Assembly (NCBI GenBank): GCA_023386645.1
Contig: JAEWJI010000007.1
Span: 4,243-68,242, forward strand
DNA length: 64,000 bases
Direction of reading: 5' to 3'
Source of the DNA: Pseudomonadota bacterium
GTDB taxonomy: Bacteria; Pseudomonadota; Alphaproteobacteria; Caulobacterales; Caulobacteraceae
Part shown: positions 35,211 to 45,028 of the stretch, in pieces
Numbering within the stretch: position 1 is the stretch's first letter
Layout: every line of letters starts with the position of its first letter
The notes under the pieces: generated by a model
Told to the model about the DNA's origin: nothing
The model's input: the letters and a program-made list of their open reading frames with translations, nothing else
Database searches by the model: none
Position numbers and translations under genes: made by a program

Positions 35211-36740
35211 TCAGGTCGCCGGCGCGTCCTGGGAAGGCGCGGCCTCGCTGTCCGTATCGTCCATCTCCGCGCGATAGCGGTCGATCAGGGCGCGCGCGAG
35301 GGCCGTGGCGCCGTCGGGGTGGGGGCTGGTCGCCAGGGGATACAACAGCCCGATCGCCGGGCCGAGCTCGTCGCGCCGGGCATGGGCCTGGGCGGCGAAC
35401 AGGCGCACGTGCGACGCCTGGGGCGCCAGCTCCAGCGCCGCCAGCAGGGTCTCCATGTCGTTGTCGTTGGGGAAGCTGGGAGAGATGCTGCGCGTCTCGG
35501 CCAGCAGATAGAGGGTGCGGAAGTCGGTCGGCCGCTGCTCATAGGCGGCGCTCAGATGAGTGCGCGCCGCCCGCACGGCGGCCAGCAGGGCCTCGTTGTC
35601 GAGATCGCCGTCGCGGGCCGCGGTCCAGATCGCCTCGCCCAGCAGGCGCCGTGCGTCGGCATCGGTCGGGACGGCGGCCACGAGCGGTTCGAGCACGGTG
35701 CGCGCCGCCGACGCCTCCCCCAGCCTCAGCTCGGCGCGGGCCAGCAGCCGGCGCGCGAAGGGGTCGGTCGGGTAAGGCGCCGTGCGCCTGCGGATCTCCT
35801 CCAGCAGGGCCGGGTCGTCCTGGTCGCCGTTCGAGGTCAGGCGCAGGTCCAGCAACAGCAGGTCGTTCTCGGCCCGCGACAGGGTGGTCGTCGTGACTTC
35901 CGCGCGCGGCAGGCTGACCCCGGTGATGATCTTGATCGGCAGCCGAGACCGCGAATAGGCCCGCAGGGTCTGTTCGAAGCGGCCGATCGGCATGCCCACG
36001 GCCGCCTCCATGGCCGCGACCGGGTCGGCGCCATCCTGCATCCGGACCACATAGTTCCGGAACATGGCCATGCGGGCCGGGTCCGAGATGAACCAGTGGG
36101 TCATGAGCCACGACTGGGCGTAGTACATCGACACCGCGTTGGAATCCTGGAACTCCCATGGGCGTCGGGTCAGGATCAGGTTGAGCGGCAGCCAGTTGGT
36201 GTAGGTAAGCCAGTCTCCTCGGCCGCGGCTGACCTCGCCCAGGGTGATCCGCTGAGAGTTCAGCTGGGCGCTGGAGAAATATTCGGCGTAGCCCTCGATG
36301 AACCAGGCCGGAAAGCCGGGCGAGAACGAGCCGATCATGAAGTGGTGGGCGTATTCGTGCAGCAGGGTGGAGCTTTCGCGTCTCTCCCGGATGGCGATGG
36401 CGAAGATGTCGTCATGGGTGGCGCGATAGAAGCCGGCGACGTTCTCGCGCAGCTCGGGCTGCACCTTTCGCAGGTCCGCCTCGTCGCCCACCAGATAGAT
36501 GGCGATCCGGTTCTGCGGCGCGGCGGCGGGATCGAGCTGGTGCATCAGCCGCAGCGCGCTTTCGTACAACTCCAGCTGGAGGGCGGCCTCGGTCAGGGAG
36601 CGGGCGTCGCCGTCGCTGTAGACGATGAAGCGAGTGGTCTCCGCCCGCTTCCATTCCGCCGCCGCCGGGCTGGCGAAGAGGCCCAGCAGAAGCGCGGCCG
36701 CCAGCGCCCCTGCCCAGATGGCTCCACGCATCATGACCAT
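35211..36740 (-). CDS. secreted putative HExxH metallopeptidase with helical-repeat C-terminus
   Basis: GGGAGGA RBS and a signal peptide. HEYAHHF zinc-type motif followed by FIEGYAEYF. The C-terminal third is TPR-like. Confidence 0.7.
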   Translation of the reverse strand: MVMMRGAIWAGALAAALLLGLFASPAAAEWKRAETTRFIVYSDGDARSLTEAALQLELYESALRLMHQLDPAAAPQNRIAIYLVGDEADLRKVQPELRENVAGFYRATHDDIFAIAIRERRESSTLLHEYAHHFMIGSFSPGFPAWFIEGYAEYFSSAQLNSQRITLGEVSRGRGDWLTYTNWLPLNLILTRRPWEFQDSNAVSMYYAQSWLMTHWFISDPARMAMFRNYVVRMQDGADPVAAMEAAVGMPIGRFEQTLRAYSRSRLPIKIITGVSLPRAEVTTTTLSRAENDLLLLDLRLTSNGDQDDPALLEEIRRRTAPYPTDPFARRLLARAELRLGEASAARTVLEPLVAAVPTDADARRLLGEAIWTAARDGDLDNEALLAAVRAARTHLSAAYEQRPTDFRTLYLLAETRSISPSFPNDNDMETLLAALELAPQASHVRLFAAQAHARRDELGPAIGLLYPLATSPHPDGATALARALIDRYRAEMDDTDSEAAPSQDAPAT

Positions 36741-36838
36741 GATCCTCCCTGTCCCCCCACCACCTTAGCCCGGCGGCCCAAACCGACAAGTGTGACGCGC
36801 CGGCGTCTGCAACGAGGGGCTGTGGGAGTTGGGAGGTC

Positions 36839-37255
36839 TCAGCGCCTGGAGGCGTTAAAGGCCCAGGTTACGCCGTAGGGGTCGCGGACCTGGCCCCAGC
36901 GGTCGCCCCAGAACATCTCCTGCACGGGCATCAGAACCTCGCATCCGGCCTCGACCGCGCGCGCCTGCCAGGCGTCGGCGTCGTCGACGTGCAGCTGCAT
37001 CACCGTCCCCTCATGGCCTTTGAACGGATGGCCGTGATCCGGGTAGGGGTCGCTCAGCATCAGCGAGGCGCCGTTGACGTACAGATGCACATGCATGGTC
37101 CGCCCCTGGGGGTCGGGCGGCACGGCGAAGGCGGTCTCGGCGGCGAACGCCGTCTCATAGAAGCGGGCGGCCGCGAGCGCCCCCTCGACCGTGACATAGG
37201 GGCACAGCCCGCCCTTCACCGGCGGCATGGAAGGGAAGTCGGCGATGTCGGTCAT
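36839..37255 (-). CDS. VOC (glyoxalase/PhnB-like) family protein
   Basis: 138 aa. YVTVEG...FYETAF...MFWGDRWGQVRDPYGVTWAF is a PhnB-like pattern. Confidence 0.8.
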   Translation of the reverse strand: MTDIADFPSMPPVKGGLCPYVTVEGALAAARFYETAFAAETAFAVPPDPQGRTMHVHLYVNGASLMLSDPYPDHGHPFKGHEGTVMQLHVDDADAWQARAVEAGCEVLMPVQEMFWGDRWGQVRDPYGVTWAFNASRR

Positions 37256-37358
37256 GGGGTCCTCCTCTCGATGACGGCCGGAGGACGAACGGCGACGGAG
37301 CGAACCGACAACCGGGCAGGCGAAAATCCTTCCCCGGTTCGCGGGGGAGCGGAATATC

Positions 37359-38594
37359 TCAGCCGGCCAACCCCTCGATCTCGGCTCTGATGTGCGCAGC
37401 CTCGGCGGGGGTGTTGGCGAGGGAGACCGCGCGGTTGAAGGCCTCGCGGGCCTCGGCCGGCCGATCCAGCTGCTTGAGCAAAGCCCCCCTCAGGCCGTGG
37501 AAATAGAAGTAGCCGGGCAGGCGATCCGCCAGCGGCTCGACCATCTCCAGCGCCGCCTCCGGCCCCCGCGCCTTCATCACCGCCACGGCCCGGTTCAGGG
37601 TCACCACGGGCGACGGCTCCATCCGCTCCAGCGTTTCGTACAACCGCTCGATGCCGACCCAGTCGGTGTCTTCGGCTCGATCCGCCCGCGCGTGCAGGGC
37701 CGCGATCGCCGCCTGCACCTGGTAGGGTCCCGGCCGACGGTGACGCAGCGCCTTGTCGACCAGGGCCAGGCCCTCGGCGATGAGTTTGGGGTCCCACAGG
37801 CTCCGGTCCTGGGCGTCCAGCAGGACGACCGCGCCGTGCGCGTCGAACCGCGCCGCCGCGCGCGCATGCTGCAACAGCATCAGGGCGTTGAGGCCCAGGA
37901 TCTCCGGCTCGGCCGGGAACAGGCGCAGCAGCAGCCGCCCGAGGCGGATCGCCTCCTCCGCCAGCCCCTGACGGGCGCTCTCGCCCGCCGGGGCCGTATA
38001 GCCCTCGTTGAAAACCAGATAGATCATGGCCGCGACCGGCCCCAGACGCTCGATCCGCTCGACCGCGCCGGGCGTCTGGAACGGCAGGCCGGCGGCCGCG
38101 ACCCGCGTCTTGGCCCGGGTGATCCGCTGCTCCATCGCCGCCTCGGAGACCAGGAAGGCGCGGGCGATCTGACGGACGGTCAGTCCCGAGACGATCCGCA
38201 GCGCCAGCGCGATCTGCTGGGTCGCCGGCAGGTCCGGATGGCAGCAGACGAACAGCAGCCGCAGCACGTCGTCGCGGTAGTCCGCCTCGTCCAGACGCTC
38301 GGCCAGCGGCGCCTCGGCGTCTTCGAGGTCCGAGAGGCGGTCCTCATCGGGCAGGGCGTCCTCGCGCGCCCGGCGCCGCACCCCGTCCACCCCGGCGTTG
38401 CGGCCGACGAGGATCAGCCAGGCGGCCGGATCGCGCGGCGGCCCCTTTTGCGGCCAGGACTTGAGCGCCTTCAGGCAGGCCTCCTGATACGCCTCCTCTG
38501 CCAGGTCGAGGTCGCGGAAGTAGCGCAGCAGGGCGCCGACCGCCCGGGGCCGCGCGCCCGTCAGGGCTCCCTCGATCCAGCCCGCGTCGGTCAT
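37359..38594 (-). CDS. ECF-type RNA polymerase sigma factor with long C-terminal helical extension (ECF42-like)
   Basis: Sigma-2/sigma-4 regions in the first approximately 170 aa, then an approximately 240-aa TPR-like extension. The ATG overlaps the stop of the upstream YciI-like gene (ATGA). Confidence 0.85.
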   Translation of the reverse strand: MTDAGWIEGALTGARPRAVGALLRYFRDLDLAEEAYQEACLKALKSWPQKGPPRDPAAWLILVGRNAGVDGVRRRAREDALPDEDRLSDLEDAEAPLAERLDEADYRDDVLRLLFVCCHPDLPATQQIALALRIVSGLTVRQIARAFLVSEAAMEQRITRAKTRVAAAGLPFQTPGAVERIERLGPVAAMIYLVFNEGYTAPAGESARQGLAEEAIRLGRLLLRLFPAEPEILGLNALMLLQHARAAARFDAHGAVVLLDAQDRSLWDPKLIAEGLALVDKALRHRRPGPYQVQAAIAALHARADRAEDTDWVGIERLYETLERMEPSPVVTLNRAVAVMKARGPEAALEMVEPLADRLPGYFYFHGLRGALLKQLDRPAEAREAFNRAVSLANTPAEAAHIRAEIEGLAG

Positions 38595-38977
38595 GCCGCG
38601 CCGGCGTCCTCGCCCAGCCGGTTGTCATGGAAAAGGGCCAGGGGCCTGAGCTCGAAGGCGCCCGGCGACCCTGACGCGGCGGCCAGGTCGCGCGCGACCA
38701 TGAGCGCCTCGTCCAGGTCTTCGCAGTCGACGACATAGAAGCCCAGCAGCTGCTCCTTGGTCTCCGCGAACGGGCCGTCCAGCACCACGGGCTCCTTGCC
38801 CTTGCGGATCGTCGTCGCGGCCGTGGTCGGCAGCAGCCGCGCGACCGGCCCCAGCTTGCCGCGTGCGCGCAGGGGTTCCTGCACGGCCATCAGCCGCTCC
38901 ATCACCGCCGCGTCCTCGTCCTTGGACCAGGCGGCGACCACGTCCTCGCGGTCGTAGCAGAGTATGGCGTACAGCAT
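38591..38977 (-). CDS. YciI/DGPF-domain family protein
   Basis: 128 aa from ATG 38977 (MLYAILCYD...). DGPFAETKEQLLGFYVVDCEDLDEA is the DGPF motif. GGGAG RBS. Confidence 0.85.
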   Translation of the reverse strand: MLYAILCYDREDVVAAWSKDEDAAVMERLMAVQEPLRARGKLGPVARLLPTTAATTIRKGKEPVVLDGPFAETKEQLLGFYVVDCEDLDEALMVARDLAAASGSPGAFELRPLALFHDNRLGEDAGAA

Positions 38978-39128
38978 GGCCGAGGGCTCCCAATGTGAAT
39001 GAGACGACGCCTCAGGATGCGTGCCTCCGACAGAGCCCGCCAGGTATTTCACATCCGCGTGCCTCGTCCGGGCTCTTGCTTGTTCGCCGAACCGCAGTAG
39101 CGTCGGCGCCGAACCTCGGGAGGCGGCT

Positions 39129-39704
39129 TTGAAATCAGCGATTCTCGTCGGTACGGCGCTAGCGGGCGCGCTTTTCGCCACCTCGGCCATGGCGGCGTCC
39201 GACCTCAGCGTCACGGTTACGGATTCGCCCGATCCGGTGACGGCGGGCGACAACCTCACCTACTTGATCACCCTGACCAACAGCGGGCCGGACACCGCGA
39301 GCAGCGTCACGATGAGCCTCCCCCTGCCGGTTGGCACGACGTTCCTGTCTCTGTCGACTTCGGGCCTCTGGAACTGCACCACCCCCGCGGTCGGCGCCAC
39401 CGGCACGGTGACGTGCACGTCTCCCGCTGTCGCGGTCGGAGTCGAGGTCTTTACTCTGGTCAGCAACGTCGATGTGGCCTTGGCGGGGGGCACGGTCCTG
39501 TCGCTGACCGCCAGCGCCGCTTCCGCCGATGTCGATCCGAACCCCGGCAACGAGTCCGACACCGAGACGACCACGGTCGTGGCCGCACCCCCGCCCCCAC
39601 CGCCGGTCATCCCGACTCTAACCGAATGGGCGATGATCCTGCTCGGTGCGGGTCTGGCGGCCTTGGGTGGAGCGTTCGCCCTGCGTCGTCGCCACGCCGT
39701 CTAA
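39129..39704 (+). CDS. secreted DUF11-type repeat protein with IPTL-CTERM tail
   Basis: TTG 39129 lies 6 nt after GGGAGG and gives the signal peptide (M)KSAILVGTALAGALFATSAMA. DLSVTVTDSPDPVTAGDNLTYLITLTNSGPDTA is the DUF11 repeat. Tail PPPVIPTLTEWAMILLGAGLAALGGAFALRRRHAV. Confidence 0.75.
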   Translation: MKSAILVGTALAGALFATSAMAASDLSVTVTDSPDPVTAGDNLTYLITLTNSGPDTASSVTMSLPLPVGTTFLSLSTSGLWNCTTPAVGATGTVTCTSPAVAVGVEVFTLVSNVDVALAGGTVLSLTASAASADVDPNPGNESDTETTTVVAAPPPPPPVIPTLTEWAMILLGAGLAALGGAFALRRRHAV

Positions 39705-39714
39705 AGGCGGCGGC

Positions 39715-40092
39715 CTAGGCCGCCAGCCGGCCCCAGACCGCCTTATCGGCGGCGACGGCGTCCAGCCGGCCCCGGCCGGCGCGGGCGCTGAGCTGTTTCA
39801 GCACCGTCGTCGGCAGGGCGCAGAACTGCGGCTCGACAAGTTCGGGCGCGCAGTCCTTGGCCGGGGCGGCGAACAGGGCGGCGTTCACCTCCGGGTCGCG
39901 GTCGGCGATCAGCCAGGCCAGACGGCGCGCCCGCTCCGGATCGTTCCTGTGCAGCTGCGGGTCCTCGGCGAACAGCTCGCAGCCCAGTTCCAGCACATAG
40001 TCGAAGCCCAGCTTGCCGAACCGGCGCGCGTCCGCGGGCGAGGCCTTCGCCTCGTCCAGATCGAACACCACGTCGTTCAGCAGGAACAGCAT
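39715..40092 (-). CDS. hypothetical protein
   Basis: 125 aa (MLFLLNDVVFDLDEAK...). Coding-like composition. No family recognised. Confidence 0.55.
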   Translation of the reverse strand: MLFLLNDVVFDLDEAKASPADARRFGKLGFDYVLELGCELFAEDPQLHRNDPERARRLAWLIADRDPEVNAALFAAPAKDCAPELVEPQFCALPTTVLKQLSARAGRGRLDAVAADKAVWGRLAA

Positions 40093-40200
40093 GCGAAGAC
40101 ACCCACCACCGCCGGGCTCATCACGGCCCGTTCGAAGGTCACCCTAGGCGCCACCGTTTGCATTCGCGTTCACGGGCAGGGTTAGCGGGGGGTGAAGGGG

Positions 40201-40248
40201 GAGGGTCGAGGGTCGAGGGACTAGGGACTAGGGACTAGGGACTAGGGG
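40201..40248. repeat. tandem heptamer array (gagggtc x2.7, actaggg x4)
   Basis: gagggtcgagggtcgaggg followed by actagggactagggactagggactagggg. On the minus strand it encodes the last residues and the TAG stop of the four-helix-bundle gene. Confidence 0.9.
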
Positions 40249-40632
40249 CTGCCCCGGCTGATCCAGGCGCTGCTTCAATCTGGTCAGCATGCGGCTGAGT
40301 TCATCGGCGTTGTTCAGCGCGGCGGCGATCCAAGCCTCAGATACGTGGCCGACACGGGCGGCGAGGTGAAGGAACGTCTCCGTTTCGGCAAGTGAGCCAC
40401 GAGCTATTCCGACGAAGCGTGCGTAGTCCTTTCGAGTGCCTCGCTGGTATCCTTCCGCTATGTTTGCCGGCACCGAAGCTACGCAGCGTTGAAGTTGACT
40501 GGTCATGCCGAACTTCTCGTTCGGAGGAAGCTCGGCCGCCACGGCATAGACTTCCACGGCGAGGTCCATCGCTCGGTTCCAGACCTGCAGCGCAGTGTAC
40601 CCCCTCGCATCCCCTCGCCCCTCGACCCTCAC
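40228..40632 (-). CDS. four-helix-bundle protein (23S rRNA intervening-sequence protein family)
   Basis: LQVWNRAMDLAVEVYAVAAELPPNEKFGMTSQLQRCVASVPANIAEGYQRGTRKDYARFVGIARGSLAETETFLHLA is the family signature. GTG 40632 overlaps the upstream TGA (GTGA). ATG 40569 would truncate helix 1. Confidence 0.8.
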   Translation of the reverse strand: MRVEGRGDARGYTALQVWNRAMDLAVEVYAVAAELPPNEKFGMTSQLQRCVASVPANIAEGYQRGTRKDYARFVGIARGSLAETETFLHLAARVGHVSEAWIAAALNNADELSRMLTRLKQRLDQPGQPLVPSP

Positions 40633-40647
40633 CCCTCGACCCTCTCC
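40601..40647. repeat. tandem 14-bp repeat array complementary to 40201..40219
   Basis: The plus strand reads cccctcgcatcccctcgcccctcgaccctcacccctcgaccctctcc. It contains ccctcgaccctc twice (40619 and 40633), the exact complement of gagggtcgaggg at 40201 and 40208. Confidence 0.9.
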
Positions 40648-40958
40648 GTGATGAAATGCCGCCCCTGACGGTCCTCGATCTCCACGACCCAGATGTCCGG
40701 ATCGTATCCCCGCTGCCGTTCCACATAGGCGTCGAGCTCCGCCTCGAACTCGCTCTCCACCGGTTGCATCCATAGGCGCTCGCCGTCCCGACCGAACGCC
40801 TCGACATAGAGCCGGGCGCGCCGGGTGGACGTGTCGAACACCTTTACGATGACCGTCCCGGCGCGGGCGTCGCCCTTTCGGACGACCACGGCGTTGGCCC
40901 CGCCGATCTCGGCGCGGCGGATGAGGGCGGAGACCCACAGGTCGCTCGACAGCAGCAA
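40629..40958 (-). CDS. DUF1491 family protein
   Basis: SSDLWVSALIRRAEIGGANAVVVRKGDARAGTVIVKV is DUF1491-like. There is no nearby in-frame ATG. TTG 40958 was chosen, so the start is uncertain. Confidence 0.65.
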   Translation of the reverse strand: MLLSSDLWVSALIRRAEIGGANAVVVRKGDARAGTVIVKVFDTSTRRARLYVEAFGRDGERLWMQPVESEFEAELDAYVERQRGYDPDIWVVEIEDRQGRHFITERVEG

Positions 40959-41015
40959 ATGGGTAACCCTGATTGCAAACCGGACCGCAGGGCGTTGGCG
41001 CCTAGGGTCGGGGCC

Positions 41016-41861
41016 ATGAGGATAGGCCGAACCGCCCGCGCCGTCATCGCCGCCTGTTCGGGCGCCGCCAGCCTGTTGGCCGCGCCGGCGAGCGCGGGCG
41101 ATATCGACAGCCGGCTCTACGAGCGCAGCTTCATGCTGGCGGCGCACCAGAGGTGCGGCCTGTTCGACGCGCGGCTGGCCCAAGCGCTCGGGGTCGCAGC
41201 GCTCCAGGCCCGGGGGGCCGCCCTGCTGCATGGCCGGCCCGAGGCGGAGGTGACGGCGACCGCTGTCCGCGCCCGCGCCCAGGCGGGTCGGACAACCTGC
41301 CGCAATCCAGACCTCGCCGTCGCCCGCGACCGGGTGAAATCGGCCTTCGACGGGCTGTTGAAGACCCCCCGCATGACCTTCCCCGGCGCGCGCCGGGAGT
41401 GGCGGGCGGATCGATATGCGCGGCCGATCTCCGGCTGGCGGCTGATGCAGGCGTCCTCCGTCGGCGCCTCGCCGGTGACGCTGGGGATGGGCGAGGAGGG
41501 CGGGCTTTCCGCCGTCGTCTCCTGGGACGGCCGCCCGCGTCCCTACGCCGCCCGGATCGTCGCCCGCGACACCGCCCGCGACGCGCGCCCGTGGCTGGCC
41601 GAACCCAACGCTCGCGCGCCCCGACAGGCCGTCTGGGCCTCATCCTGGCGCCCGGCGCCGGCGAAGCAGCTGGTTCAGGGCCGCCGCACCGGCGAGGCCT
41701 GGATGTTCCCGGTCTCCGCCGCCGACGCCATCGCCGCGCTCGACCCGCGCGAGACCTTCACGGTCGAGTTCATCTTCCGCGACGACAGCATCGCCCGCGT
41801 CCGCTTCGAAGCCGGCGACTTCGCCGCCGCCCGCGCCTTCGTGGGCCTGGGCGTGGTGTAG
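41016..41861 (+). CDS. secreted hypothetical protein
   Basis: ATG 41016 gives the signal peptide MRIGRTARAVIAACSGAASLLAAPASA. No family recognised. Confidence 0.55.
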   Translation: MRIGRTARAVIAACSGAASLLAAPASAGDIDSRLYERSFMLAAHQRCGLFDARLAQALGVAALQARGAALLHGRPEAEVTATAVRARAQAGRTTCRNPDLAVARDRVKSAFDGLLKTPRMTFPGARREWRADRYARPISGWRLMQASSVGASPVTLGMGEEGGLSAVVSWDGRPRPYAARIVARDTARDARPWLAEPNARAPRQAVWASSWRPAPAKQLVQGRRTGEAWMFPVSAADAIAALDPRETFTVEFIFRDDSIARVRFEAGDFAAARAFVGLGVV

Positions 41862-41868
41862 TTCCTTC

Positions 41869-41895
41869 TCCTCCCCCGTTAAGAACGGGGGAGGA
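41869..41895. terminator. 12-bp hairpin between convergent genes
   Basis: tcctcccccgtt-aag-aacgggggagga between stops at 41861 and 41906. Confidence 0.5.
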
Positions 41896-41905
41896 TAGAG
41901 CAGCT

Positions 41906-43579
41906 TCACCCCTTGCCGGCGTTCAGCGGGATGATCTCCGCCCCGCCCGTGGGGACCGAGGGCTTATCGACGACGACGACCGGCATGCGCACCGTCACCG
42001 CAGCGCCTTCGCCGAGCGTGCTGTCGATCGTCAGCCGTCCGCCGTGCAGCTCGGCCAGCGCCCGCACCAGCGACAGGCCCAGGCCCGTGCCTTGCGCCCT
42101 CTGCTCGGCCCCGCCGGCCTGTTCAAACGGGCGTCCAAGGCGGCGCAGGTCCTCGGGGGCGATGCCCACGCCGGTGTCGGAGACGACCAGCTCCAGATAG
42201 GGCCCGATGGCCTCCAGCGTCACCGTGACCGACCCTCCGGCGGGCGTGAACTTGATGGCGTTCGACAGCAGGTTCAGGGCGATCTGCTTGAGGGCCCGAC
42301 GGTCGGCGTCGACCGGGATCGGCTCGCCGGGCAGGACGCTGGCCAGGGCCACGCCCTTGTCGTCGGCCGACAGCCGCACCAGGGCCACCGCGGCCGAGAC
42401 CACGTCGCGGGCGTCCAGCCGTTCGCGGCTCAGCTGATACCGCTCGGCCTCGATCTTCGACACGTCCAGCACGTCGTTGATCAGGGCCAGCAGGTGGCCG
42501 CCGGCCTCGTGGATCGAGGCGGCGTATTCGGCGTAGCGGTCAGGCAGGGGGCCGAACAGCCGCTGGCGCATGATGTCGGCGAAGCCCAGCACCGCGTTCA
42601 GCGGCGTGCGCAGCTCGTGGCTCATGTTCGCCAGGAAGCGGGTCTTGCCGGCGTTCTGGGCCTCGGCCTCGGCTCGGGCGGTCTCCAGCTCGACCTCGCG
42701 CGCGTACTGGGCGGTGCCGTCGAAGGCCTGGACGATGATCCGGTCGCCGTGGGCCGGGTCGTCCAGCCGGCGCAGGATCAATTGGATCCGGCGGTCCAGC
42801 GCCGCGCGCGGCGCGAACAGGGCCTGGGCCTCCTGGCCGGCCAGCGCCCGGTCGAGCGCCGACAGCACCGCGGGCCGGTCCGGCGCATGCACCGCCGCGA
42901 TCAGCCCAGCCTCGAACAGCGGGTCGACCGCGAGCGCCGCCGGGGCCGCGCCATAGGCCGCCAGCACCCGGCCGGAGGGTTCCAGCACCAGGGTCAGGCC
43001 GGGCTGGCCGGTGACCAGGGCTGACAGCCGCGCCGTCTCCTCCTCGGCCGAGCGGACGCGGGCGTCGCGATCCCGCCAGGTCAGCTCCACGGCCGCCGCC
43101 GCCGCGCCCGCGACCAGGACGGCGAGCGCGGTCGACAGCAGGGCCAGATGCGGGCCGGGCCCGGCGACAAGGGCCGAGATCAATCCGCTCAGCGCCGCGA
43201 AGCCGCTGGTCGCGCCTCCGATCAGGGCCAGCCGTCGGCCGCCCAGCGCCAGCCCCGCCACGATCGGCATGAAGACGAAGGCCGTCAGGGATCCGGTCAG
43301 GCCTCCGGTCAGGACCAGGGCCGCGAACACCGCCACGCTCCAGAGCATCAGCCCCGCCATGCGCACGCCCGCGGAATCGCGCCACAGCAGGGTCAGGCCG
43401 CCGACGCCCGGCAGGATCATCAAGGCCAGGCCCAGCAGGGTCAGATCGGGCAGGCCCCGCCCCAGCCAGGCCGCCGCCAGGCCCAGCAGCGCCAGGCCGG
43501 CCGCCCAGCCCGCGTGCCAGGCGGCCAGGGCCGGGGCGTCGCGTCCGGTAGGCGCTAGGGGTGGGTGGGCCGGGGGCAA
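41906..43579 (-). CDS. multi-TM sensor histidine kinase (DivJ-like architecture)
   Basis: Five or six N-terminal TM helices and a PAS-like linker. H-box FLANMSHELRTPLNAVLGFADIM. N and G boxes are present and there is no receiver. The farthest start is TTG 43579, so the start is uncertain. Its position near sufE and the gafYZ-like genes recalls the Caulobacter divJ neighbourhood. Confidence 0.8.
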   Translation of the reverse strand: MPPAHPPLAPTGRDAPALAAWHAGWAAGLALLGLAAAWLGRGLPDLTLLGLALMILPGVGGLTLLWRDSAGVRMAGLMLWSVAVFAALVLTGGLTGSLTAFVFMPIVAGLALGGRRLALIGGATSGFAALSGLISALVAGPGPHLALLSTALAVLVAGAAAAAVELTWRDRDARVRSAEEETARLSALVTGQPGLTLVLEPSGRVLAAYGAAPAALAVDPLFEAGLIAAVHAPDRPAVLSALDRALAGQEAQALFAPRAALDRRIQLILRRLDDPAHGDRIIVQAFDGTAQYAREVELETARAEAEAQNAGKTRFLANMSHELRTPLNAVLGFADIMRQRLFGPLPDRYAEYAASIHEAGGHLLALINDVLDVSKIEAERYQLSRERLDARDVVSAAVALVRLSADDKGVALASVLPGEPIPVDADRRALKQIALNLLSNAIKFTPAGGSVTVTLEAIGPYLELVVSDTGVGIAPEDLRRLGRPFEQAGGAEQRAQGTGLGLSLVRALAELHGGRLTIDSTLGEGAAVTVRMPVVVVDKPSVPTGGAEIIPLNAGKG

Positions 43580-43765
43580 GCGGTTGTCCGGAATGATGAA
43601 CAGGGCCCGCGTGCGTCGCGCGCGCGGAGATCGAGCCTAGCCTTCCCGGCGAGTCGTCCAAAGGCTGCTCCCGCATGAGGCGAGCCCGCGCGGGGGGCGC
43701 GCGCGAAAAGCCTGGGGATCGACGCCGCCGTTGTCCTTAACCGGGACGAACTCTATCTGGCCGCG

Positions 43766-44191
43766 ATGACCGACGCCCGCCCGACCATCGACGAGACCCT
43801 CGAGGAACTGGCCGAGGATTTCGACCTGCTCGAGGACTGGGAGCAGCGGATCGGCTACGTCATCGACCTGGGTCGTGCCCTGGAGCCTCTGCCCGAGGCG
43901 GACCGGACCGAGGACAACAAGGTCCCGGGCTGCGCCGCCCAGGTCTGGCTCGCGGTCCGGCGCGACGGCGAGCGCCTGCGCTTCCTCGCCGATTCCGACA
44001 GCGCCCTGTCCAAGGGCAATATCGCTCTCCTGCTGAAGCTCTATTCCGACCGAGCCCCGGCCGAGATCCTGGCCTTCGACGCCCGAGCGGCGCTCGACCG
44101 CCTCGGCCTGCCCCAGGCCCTGACCCGCCAGCGCGCCAACGGCCTGAACGCCATGGTGGGCCGGATCCGGGAAGCGGCGCTGGCCGCCTAG
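43766..44191 (+). CDS. sufE: cysteine desulfuration protein SufE
   Basis: 141 aa. NKVPGCAAQVWL with the conserved persulfide Cys. SufE-like ends. Confidence 0.88.
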   Translation: MTDARPTIDETLEELAEDFDLLEDWEQRIGYVIDLGRALEPLPEADRTEDNKVPGCAAQVWLAVRRDGERLRFLADSDSALSKGNIALLLKLYSDRAPAEILAFDARAALDRLGLPQALTRQRANGLNAMVGRIREAALAA

Positions 44192-44213
44192 GTCTCGGCG
44201 GCTTTCCGCCACT

Positions 44214-44318
44214 CCCGTCGTCCCGACCCTGACCGAGTGGGCGATGATCGCCCTGGCCGGCCTGCTGGGCATGTTCGGGCTGTCATGCCTGATCGCGGGC
44301 TGCTCCCGAGAGGCCTGA
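44214..44318 (+). pseudogene. orphan IPTL-CTERM tail remnant (no passenger domain, no usable start)
   Basis: This frame reads PVVPTLTEWAMIALAGLLGMFGLSCLIAGCSREA then stop. Upstream in frame there is a TGA at 44145 and no ATG, GTG or TTG before the motif. It overlaps the sufE 3-prime end in another frame. Confidence 0.5.
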
Positions 44319-44327
44319 CGCGCGGCC

Positions 44328-44597
44328 TCAGCCCATGCCGTAGTGGGCCGCCAGCGCCCCCAGCGCCGCCTTCAGCCGCAGCTTGCCCTCCCGCCGCTTC
44401 AGGCCCAGCTGTCGTTCAGCCAGGGTCAGCGAGCTTTCGCGCAGACACACGGCCTCCAGCATCGGGGCCAGCCGGGGGCCGCAGGCGTCGAGCGCCCGCC
44501 GCACCCGCCGGCCCGCCGCCAGGGCCCGATCGGTCTGCTCCCTGCGGGCGCTTGAGCCGCCGCCCGGCCGGGGCAGGGCGTCCCAGCGCATGGTCAT
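44328..44597 (-). CDS. GafZ-like C-terminal part (DUF6456-type HTH)
   Basis: MTMRWDALPRP...LEAVCLRESSLTLAERQLGLKRREGKLRLKAALGALAAHYG. The ATG overlaps the TGA of the preceding ORF (ATGA). It may be the downstream half of a frameshifted gene. Confidence 0.6.
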   Translation of the reverse strand: MTMRWDALPRPGGGSSARREQTDRALAAGRRVRRALDACGPRLAPMLEAVCLRESSLTLAERQLGLKRREGKLRLKAALGALAAHYGMG

Positions 44598-45028
44598 GGA
44601 CGGCCCGTCTGGGCCTGCTCCCAGTCGGCGCGCAGCCGTTCGGCCGCCGCCACCTCGGCCGGTTCCAGCCAGGGGCGCCCGTCGAGTCCCTTGCGCCGCG
44701 CCAGCCACAGGACAGGCGACTGGCCAAGGTTGGCGGGCTTGAGCACGACGCGACCGTCCGCCTCCATCACCGCCTTCTCGCCCGGCTCGAACCCTGGCCG
44801 GCCGGCGGCGGGACCGTCCGCGACCGGCGCGCGCCCACGCCAACCGCCGGGCGTCGCGACAAGACCCGGAGATTCGAAAACCGCCTGGAAGGTCGCGGCA
44901 TCCAGTTCCAGCACCACCCGGCCGCGCCGATCCGGTGACAGCCGCAGGCGATAGACGTCCGGCCCGCCTTCGATCCAGGCCTCGCGCCGCGCCAGCAGGC
45001 TTCGCGCCCTCTCCACGCGCCGGCTCAT
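44594..45028 (-). CDS. GafZ-like N-terminal part
   Basis: 144 aa. NLGQSPVLWLARRKGLDGRPWLEPAEVAAAERLRADWE is the motif I associate with DUF6456/GafZ-type proteins. The ATG overlaps the stop of the upstream gene (ATGA). Confidence 0.62.
   Translation of the reverse strand: MSRRVERARSLLARREAWIEGGPDVYRLRLSPDRRGRVVLELDAATFQAVFESPGLVATPGGWRGRAPVADGPAAGRPGFEPGEKAVMEADGRVVLKPANLGQSPVLWLARRKGLDGRPWLEPAEVAAAERLRADWEQAQTGRP

Follow-up and report, generated by a model that had tools for sequence, protein, structure and literature searches.

The origin of the intervening sequences (IVSs) of ribosomal RNA (rRNA) is a question dating from about 1990. Here we analyze a stretch of 64,000 nucleotides from a Brevundimonas genome (contig JAEWJI010000007.1 of assembly GCA_023386645.1, positions 4,243 to 68,242 of the forward strand; hereafter, the window), in which a gene for a four-helix-bundle (4HB) protein lies between inverted arrays of tandem heptamers at the 3′ end of a DUF1491 gene. 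The closest known relatives of this cassette are 23S rRNA IVSs that bear an open reading frame (ORF), such as those of Coxiella burnetii, with its S23p ORF, Leptospira and Brucella. The Coxiella IVS has a 28-bp terminal stem and three copies of GACAGAT just before the S23p ORF, and it is cut by RNase III at the first heptamer; heptamer copy number in ORF-bearing IVSs varies between strains, and these elements have long been suspected of being mobile or selfish (PMC4990558). A separate literature describes heptamer arrays of GGGAATC in Xanthomonas, where each genome has 70-75 inverted pairs in convergent orientation, and of GGGGATT in Nostoc (Rehm et al. 2015, PMC4692102). A supplementary table of the same study places a heptamer array across the start codon of Xcc0516, the protein of PDB entry 2GSC (PMC4692102). 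Unlike in our analysis, the arrays were treated there as G-quadruplex (G4) motifs without a link to 4HB proteins. The present finding joins these two separate literatures, that of G-rich heptamer repeats and that of IVS proteins, and a full-text literature search returned no description of non-rRNA 4HB genes enclosed by inverted heptamer arrays as a class.

We think it probable that the window cassette is one instance of a recurrent, self-contained element in which a 4HB gene occupies the loop of an inverted-heptamer hairpin at the 3′ end of a host gene. The parts of the cassette and the genes on either side are listed here by window position, the arms being named in the sense of the 4HB gene (in the genome of the window, G000, the coordinate on contig C28 is the window position + 4242).

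40632..40228, minus strand: 4HB ORF, 134 aa from the GTG at 40632, with a TAG stop at 40230..40228.
40611..40647, minus strand: 5′ arm, G-rich heptamers GAGGGTC GAGGGGT GAGGGTC GAGGGGC GAGGGGA.
40198..40247, minus strand: 3′ arm, (CCCTAGT)x4 then CCCTCGA CCCTCGA CCCTC.
40961..40629, minus strand: DUF1491 gene, 110 aa (PF07372, E 8.9e-34).
39715..40092, minus strand: downstream neighbor, 125 aa, the other flank of the insertion site.

The cassette lies exactly at the 3′ end of its host gene, DUF1491, and in the same orientation. The DUF1491 TGA shares bases with the 4HB GTG (GTGA), leaving zero gap between the two genes, and the 5′ array contains this TGA together with the final DUF1491 codons (ERVEG); the DUF1491 proteins of relatives terminate in ...HFITEKVAG. 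At the other end, the 4HB ORF reads into the 3′ heptamers, which code for PLVPSP and contain its TAG stop. Arrays called with Tandem Repeats Finder have, at 40611-40644 (CCCCTCG-type on the + strand), a period of 7 with 4.9 copies or a period of 14 with 2.4 copies of the 14-mer CCCTCACCCCTCGA, and, again on the + strand, 2.7 copies of GAGGGTC at 40201-40219 and 4.6 copies of AGGGACT at 40216-40247. The two arms are inverted relative to each other, with 81% complementarity over 36 nt (40198-40233 and 40612-40647), and the portion of the 3′ arm that pairs with the 5′ arm is the stretch CCCTCGA CCCTCGA CCCTC; the inverted repeats I1-I5 involve the 3′ arm, the 5′ arm being one side of I1. The 12-mer GAGGGTCGAGGG occurs in exactly two copies per side, on opposite strands, and with at most one mismatch it occurs 7 times in the window against 1.4 expected, a count of 7 being reached in 0/100 shuffles. 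In the minimum-free-energy fold, the arms pair and the ORF lies in the loop (dG -210.6 kcal/mol, z -3.0). A preliminary description of this locus, made from the sequence alone, had reported inverted 7/14-bp arrays around the ORF, the 12-mer twice upstream and its complement twice downstream, the coding content of both arrays and a potential stem with the ORF in its loop; each of these statements stood up to the present analysis.

The encoded protein belongs, as had been claimed, to the rRNA-IVS family of four-helix bundles. It matches PF05635 with an E value of 1.2e-35 and 122.3 bits (cut-off 33.8), covering positions 3-105 of the 106 in the model, and TIGR02436 with 114 bits (cut-off 24). To our knowledge, this very large family (PF05635/TIGR02436) has no known function outside diversity-generating retroelements, whose accessory protein Avd has a homologous four-helix-bundle fold (PF05635/PF22296 family). 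An Avd-like accessory role was rejected, there being no match to the reverse transcriptase family RVT_1 anywhere in the genome, and, unlike in Avd systems, no template/variable repeat pair was found near the window cassette. The nearest solved homologue is Xcc0516 (PDB 2GSC; E 9.6e-21), which is pentameric, and by its sequence similarity to this protein the window protein is a putative homopentamer. Our guess is that its role would be that of a nucleic-acid-binding pentamer acting on the heptamer repeats. The R-x3-S-x3-N-x2-E motif of the family (Lin 2006; PMC3936711) is present as R49, S53, N57 and E60 within QRCVASVPANIAEG, and PF05635 genes within operons and cas loci are already in print (PMC3936711).

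Like the 23S rRNA IVSs, the window cassette has terminal inverted repeats that can pair into a stem, a PF05635 ORF in the loop of this stem and tandem heptamers 5′ of the ORF, and the analogy drawn in the preliminary description is strengthened by the published Coxiella stem, the heptamers before its ORF and the cut at the first heptamer (PMC4990558). Unlike those IVSs, it is not inserted in a 23S rRNA helix; DUF1491 lies on one side and a conserved protein gene on the other, so that it stands between two protein genes, in an mRNA context, oriented as the upstream gene is. Its arrays also differ from those of rRNA IVSs in that parts of them encode the ends of the host protein and of the 4HB protein. 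Excision by RNase III has been shown for Coxiella, whereas RNase III processing at the present locus is putative. We regard the feature as an IVS-type cassette in an mRNA context. With the Xanthomonas and Nostoc repeats, the arrays share G-tract heptamers, dispersal at gene ends, a frequent arrangement in convergent pairs, and length variation between relatives. The window cassette has seven G3 tracts at 7-nt spacing on the + strand (40203-40247) and at least five on the - strand (40612-40642), in convergent orientation, and thus agrees with the definition of a G4-prone heptamer repeat (at least four G3 tracts, 7-nt spacing, often convergent pairs; Rehm et al. 2015). It differs from the repeats of that study in that many arrays are not G-rich here and in that the arms covary.

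A scan of species-representative genomes showed that the cassette is a recurrent type and not a local oddity. A 4HB gene stands directly after DUF1491 in 14 other Brevundimonas or Caulobacteraceae genomes (60-77% identity), all with inverted heptamer arms, which are built of GGGTCGA, GGGTTGA, GGGGCTA/G, GGGGCGA (with GGGAAGA) or GGGTCTG. Relatives having the gene without repeats and with a longer N-terminus, named beforehand as the observation that would count against the proposal, were not encountered; arms were present in every relative examined. Cassettes of identical layout occupy other loci in unclassified Alphaproteobacteria, Omnitrophota, Armatimonadota and Anaerolineae, and further arm types among the cassettes are GGGTNNA and, among the Omnitrophota and Anaerolineae copies, GTTCAGA/TCTGAAC. 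Within the genus, PF05635 genes are found in 148 of the 276 Brevundimonas species genomes, in 1-8 copies each and at many loci. Among 40 further Brevundimonas 4HB genes that we sampled, 30 had a strict inverted heptamer pair and 39 an inverted score of at least 16, with direct repeats scoring ~8. These cassettes occupy tight gene junctions, such as aguA/aguB and fliI/fliJ; one of them (L156) is a GAGTGGC-armed cassette between aguA-like and aguB-like genes (L156:223-664, 241-700) that has an ATGA overlap on each side and arrays encoding the N-termini of the 4HB protein and, in the case of the 3′ array, of the downstream enzyme. The 4.4-unit arrays of this cassette recur in about 18 species. 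In an Armatimonadota locus (L049; 2880-3000, 3430-3480), ~50 nt of the host-gene 3′ end, ending in ...AVQYRSLDRKLWG and the stop, are directly duplicated on the two flanks of the cassette, and this is the only locus with anything resembling a target duplication.

At each locus, the 3′ arm is the reverse complement of its own 5′ arm, with the heptamer varying between loci. Across 22 cassettes, copies from other phyla among them, the mean complementarity score was 22.2 for arms of the same cassette vs 13.9 for cross-locus combinations, with direct-repeat scores of ~7, and the observed sum was matched by 0/20,000 random re-pairings. Judged by these sequence comparisons, the arms remain complementary while the heptamer changes from locus to locus.

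We surveyed the DUF1491 site in 104 Brevundimonas species. DUF1491 orthologues are present in 265 of the 276 genomes of the genus, and the downstream neighbor, which has no Pfam or NCBIfam family match, is syntenic after DUF1491 in most relatives. This comparison, which the preliminary description had proposed, revealed three allelic states: a 4HB cassette (about 10 of the 104 species), a gene-less inverted heptamer hairpin that begins at the DUF1491 stop and has a loop of 39-75 nt (at least 20), or an empty site with the next gene, the downstream neighbor, 110-160 nt away (about 30). About 7 more species have a single detectable array, and the remaining species are rearranged at this site. 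Arms-only alleles have a conserved loop between arms of GTGATTG, AGTGGTT or GAGTGGC type. Occupied alleles, whether arms-only or filled, end in CCC-TAA-CCAC in the loci compared (L003, L006, L084, L085 and L088), and the DUF1491 stop codon of some empty alleles lies within CC-TAA-CCA; the shared CC-TAA-CCA suggests that the element sits just before the original DUF1491 stop. The sequence of L088 looks like a scar after hairpin loss. A different palindromic element (…CTCCCTCCCCTTCATGGG…/…CCCATGAAGGGGAGGGAG…) occupies the DUF1491 site in two species (L019 and L022), in the 280-330 nt that follow the stop.

Presence and absence at this site, swaps of cassettes within near-identical flanks, and duplication from array to array show that the cassette is inherited as a unit apart from its flanks, and the preliminary view of it as a self-contained cassette behind DUF1491 is upheld by the three allelic states, the sharp edges and the extent of the duplicate. 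In one pair of loci (L036 and L040), the flanks are 90-100% identical while the cassettes are 55-70% identical and have different heptamers, and the edges of the divergent segment are sharp, at the DUF1491 end and ~25 nt ahead of a conserved downstream motif. Four-fold degenerate sites differ at 27/48 positions in the 4HB gene vs 77/313 in three flanking genes (Fisher p 2e-5), an excess that points to a deeper history or hypermutation, not merely to relaxed constraint. Distances between 4HB genes correlate weakly with those between the DUF1491 genes (Mantel r 0.37); this, together with the excess of synonymous differences, led us to reject the idea that the cassette is passed on strictly vertically along with DUF1491. 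Cassettes of GGGTCGA type and of GGGGCTA type are each found in several host clades. At another locus (L041), a different junction 1.7 kb away is occupied by a second cassette, with 80% identity to the first; the two are homologous exactly between their first and last heptamers, arrays and ORF having been duplicated together. The aguA/aguB-like junction of L156 is a second polymorphic site: in contigs from ~96%-identical relatives, position 223 is joined to 664 with the cassette absent, and this cassette-less junction (contigs of three public runs) has 15-17 other letters between the two positions. A look-up of public sequencing runs found none with the window locus; assembled public contigs for relatives of L038 and L156 contain arm-sharing hairpins elsewhere and a cassette-less allele, with no processing ends.

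The arms of the cassette belong to a genus-wide class of gene-less hairpins located at gene ends and in frame within genes. A genome search for further arrays and 4HB genes, also proposed in the preliminary description, found the 4HB ORF of the window to be the only PF05635 gene of its genome, together with at least six gene-less inverted heptamer pairs, all outside the window.

G000 C43:20736-20840: thiC hairpin (L132), in frame, GGGACGA/GGGTCGA ... TCGACCC x3.
G000 C46:30606-30788, C9:3858-3940, C47:82456-82540, C30:70814-70893 and C23:14200-14300: further gene-less pairs.

The sites of the further pairs are the mutL linker and an ABC-F gene (both in frame), dnaA-dnaN, suhB-efp, and one more intergenic region, and the heptamers of these dispersed pairs are of the two types present in the arms of the genome's single cassette. 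The thiC hairpin adds ~31 residues in the window genome. Orthologous elements are present in at least six other Brevundimonas species, with a conserved loop encoding TITLADGSTVPLP and with arms that vary (GGGTCGA, GGGTGTG, GAGTGGC, GTGGCGA) while retaining complementarity; the element is absent in about seven other Brevundimonas and in other families, where the segment measures 63 nt vs 156 nt. The loops of arms-only hairpins had no similarity to 4HB genes beyond that of shuffled controls, which ruled out arms-only hairpins as recognizable 4HB-deletion derivatives. A run of ~120 G on another contig of the window genome (C33:84942-85070, outside the window) is probably a sequencing or assembly artefact.

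Array content follows 4HB content in part. Arrays of GGGTCGA x3 occur in 15/15 genomes with G-rich DUF1491 cassettes (3-58 per genome), in 2/27 genomes without a 4HB gene (the exceptions being G043 with 30 hits and G059 with 3), and in 1/27 genomes whose cassettes use other heptamers; where two GGGTCGA arrays lie close together, the + copy comes first in 22/22 pairs. GAGTGGC x3 arrays occur in 23/27 genomes chosen as 4HB carriers, most of which have GAGTGGC-type arms, and in 12/27 genomes without a 4HB gene. One of the genomes, G043, is a 99%-complete Brevundimonas without PF05635 whose ~30 GGGTCGA x3 hits include several inverted pairs (C1:464377-464497 and C4:193835-193921, for example). The association between arrays and 4HB genes is real, but it is not strict and is confounded by phylogeny; strict pairing of protein and heptamer was rejected, as GGGTCGA arrays are common where the DUF1491 cassette uses another heptamer and arrays also occur without a 4HB gene. 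From these distributions, the heptamer types of the hairpins are clade-specific and are shared by the cassette arms, and hairpins can be present where no 4HB gene resides.

We detected neither a promoter-like nor a terminator-like site in the cassette region, and there was no Rfam match in 36000-45000. Having no promoter or terminator of its own, the cassette would be transcribed by read-through from DUF1491, and its translation would be coupled through the GTG that overlaps the DUF1491 TGA. In the transcript, by analogy with 23S rRNA IVSs, the arms may pair and so loop the insert out of the host mRNA, which would limit the harm to the host operon. We hypothesize that complementarity of the arms is kept mainly by a process at the DNA level, in which the units of an array would be homogenized by replication slippage and the match between the two arms would be preserved by templated correction from one to the other, with selection on single RNA base pairs making a smaller contribution.

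The start codon in this scheme departs from that of the relatives. Orthologous cassettes start at an ATG or GTG just within the 5′ array, with the N-terminus M-(R/K/S)-G-Y-x-(D/E)-L-x-V-W, and three cassettes used for comparison (L040, L041 and L042) read ATG CGN GGN TAT. The window copy has an ATG at the corresponding position (40610..40608, minus strand), which is out of frame, the distance from this ATG to the TAC codon being 8 nt (CGAGGGGG) vs 6 nt in relatives. Because the family-typical ATG is out of frame, GTG 40632 is the sole route to a full-length 4HB protein; in the public annotation (P0001, 113 aa), an internal ATG is taken as the start, which would leave out most of helix 1. Translation of the window gene from the GTG overlapping the DUF1491 TGA is credible, given that the L156 cassette type has ATGA overlaps.

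Several observations weigh against the reading of the cassette as a recurrent, self-contained unit with a functional gene and stem. With the canonical ATG out of frame, the window copy may be a (very) young pseudogene, and damaged copies exist elsewhere (frameshifts in L047 and L044, a truncation in L094). Filled/empty and filled/filled alignments of Brevundimonas junctions revealed no target-site duplication, so that the cassette does not correspond to a classical transposon or miniature inverted-repeat transposable element (MITE), defined by terminal inverted repeats together with such a duplication. No transposase, reverse transcriptase or tyrosine transposase of the type associated with repetitive extragenic palindromic (REP) sequences (RAYT) was found in the genome, and the cassette swaps may have arisen without transposition, by recombination through the conserved flanks. 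Finally, arm mismatches were not enriched for changes compatible with G.U pairing on the sense strand (66 vs 94). Selection at the RNA level on the pairs of the stem is thus unsupported by the mismatch spectrum, and it is because of this that we attribute complementarity mainly to a DNA-level process.

The alternative that survives best, which we nevertheless regard as unlikely, is that the hairpins are an independent repeat class, generated by the host or self-propagating, and that the 4HB gene is mere cargo in their loops or is tolerated there, with no functional link between protein and repeat and no RNA role for the stem. Such hairpins would be comparable to REP sequences or to the GGGAATC pairs of Xanthomonas. 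REP/REPIN-RAYT systems (REPINs being hairpin-forming REP doublets), MITEs and Rickettsia palindromic elements are likewise short dispersed palindromes at gene ends, and Rickettsia palindromic elements are, like the thiC and mutL hairpins, inserted in frame in protein genes. Unlike these elements, the hairpins lack both a target duplication and a conserved sequence at their termini, and their arm unit differs by locus; a REP/RAYT system proper was rejected, as the genome has no Y1 (RAYT) transposase (PF01797) and arm units differ between loci. The cargo explanation draws on the arrays of genomes without 4HB genes (GAGTGGC x3 in 12 of 27, and the 30 GGGTCGA hits of G043), on the greater number of arms-only than of filled alleles at the DUF1491 site, on the use by cassette arms of a heptamer type common in their own genome, and on the lack of a wobble signal in the arms; that hairpin loops are unlike 4HB genes, and hence not recognizable deletion derivatives, also agrees with it. 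Yet nearly every 4HB gene of the genus is armed, as are the copies in distant phyla and in rRNA IVSs, which passive residence explains poorly. Moreover, filled DUF1491 alleles do not retain the loop halves of arms-only alleles, so that simple insertion into a resident hairpin is not seen, and the L041 pair demonstrates that arrays and ORF duplicate together.

We find it less credible still, and improbable overall, that cassette and gene-less hairpins form a pair of autonomous and non-autonomous elements, in which the 4HB pentamer would be a trans-acting factor that recognizes the arrays and spreads or maintains both, in the manner of RAYTs and REPINs. The distribution of arrays among genomes would fit such a factor, GGGTCGA arrays being found in all 15 genomes with G-rich cassettes vs 2 of 27 genomes lacking 4HB genes and 1 of the 27 whose cassettes are of other types, and GAGTGGC arrays in 23 of 27 4HB carriers vs 12 of 27 non-carriers; the same is true of the two heptamer types shared by the dispersed hairpins and the single cassette of the window genome, and of the arms-only carriers at the DUF1491 site, which are mostly 4HB-positive genomes. 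However, phylogeny confounds this co-occurrence, complete genomes that lack PF05635 genes still have hairpin arrays, and the same dispersed arrays are found alongside cassettes of differing heptamer type. The proposed factor would also be a helical bundle of 120 aa without a known catalytic motif, and neither a target duplication nor defined ends were found. Very unlikely, lastly, is the explanation that the arrays are G4 repeats whose G3-N4 units fold, on the two opposite strands, into quadruplexes that modulate how the flanking genes are transcribed or translated, with the inverted layout incidental, for although both arms have at least 6 G-tracts spaced 7 nt apart and the same repeat type is G4-prone in Xanthomonas and Nostoc (PMC4692102), many arms without G-tracts (GTGATTG, AGGCAGC, GAGTGGC, GAGGTTC, GTTCAGA) are still inverted and complementary, and the conserved property is complementarity, not G-richness.

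What this locus adds is a three-state polymorphic site in many species, with sharp boundaries and excess synonymous divergence, as well as a within-genome pair of cassettes sharing arms, orthologous hairpins with covarying arms, and arrays that persist without the gene. The near-universal residence of 4HB genes in hairpins, the covariation of the arms and the exchange of cassettes independently of their flanks lead to concrete hypotheses, namely RNase III processing, translational coupling and binding of the protein to the repeats. With more than 100 related species, the DUF1491 locus is suited to the study of how such elements come and go, and the DUF1491 and thiC sites of Brevundimonas offer many independent alleles for studying the concerted evolution of inverted tandem arrays. 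We tentatively raise the possibility that all of these elements belong to one genetic system, consisting of fast-evolving DNA/RNA hairpins that template themselves by copying between arms, that reside in gene junctions, protein linkers and rRNA helices, and that are read or stabilized by the 4HB pentamer. If this were true, the Brevundimonas DUF1491 site would be a natural experiment on gain, loss and replacement, and the classical 23S rRNA intervening sequences would be only those copies that landed in rRNA.

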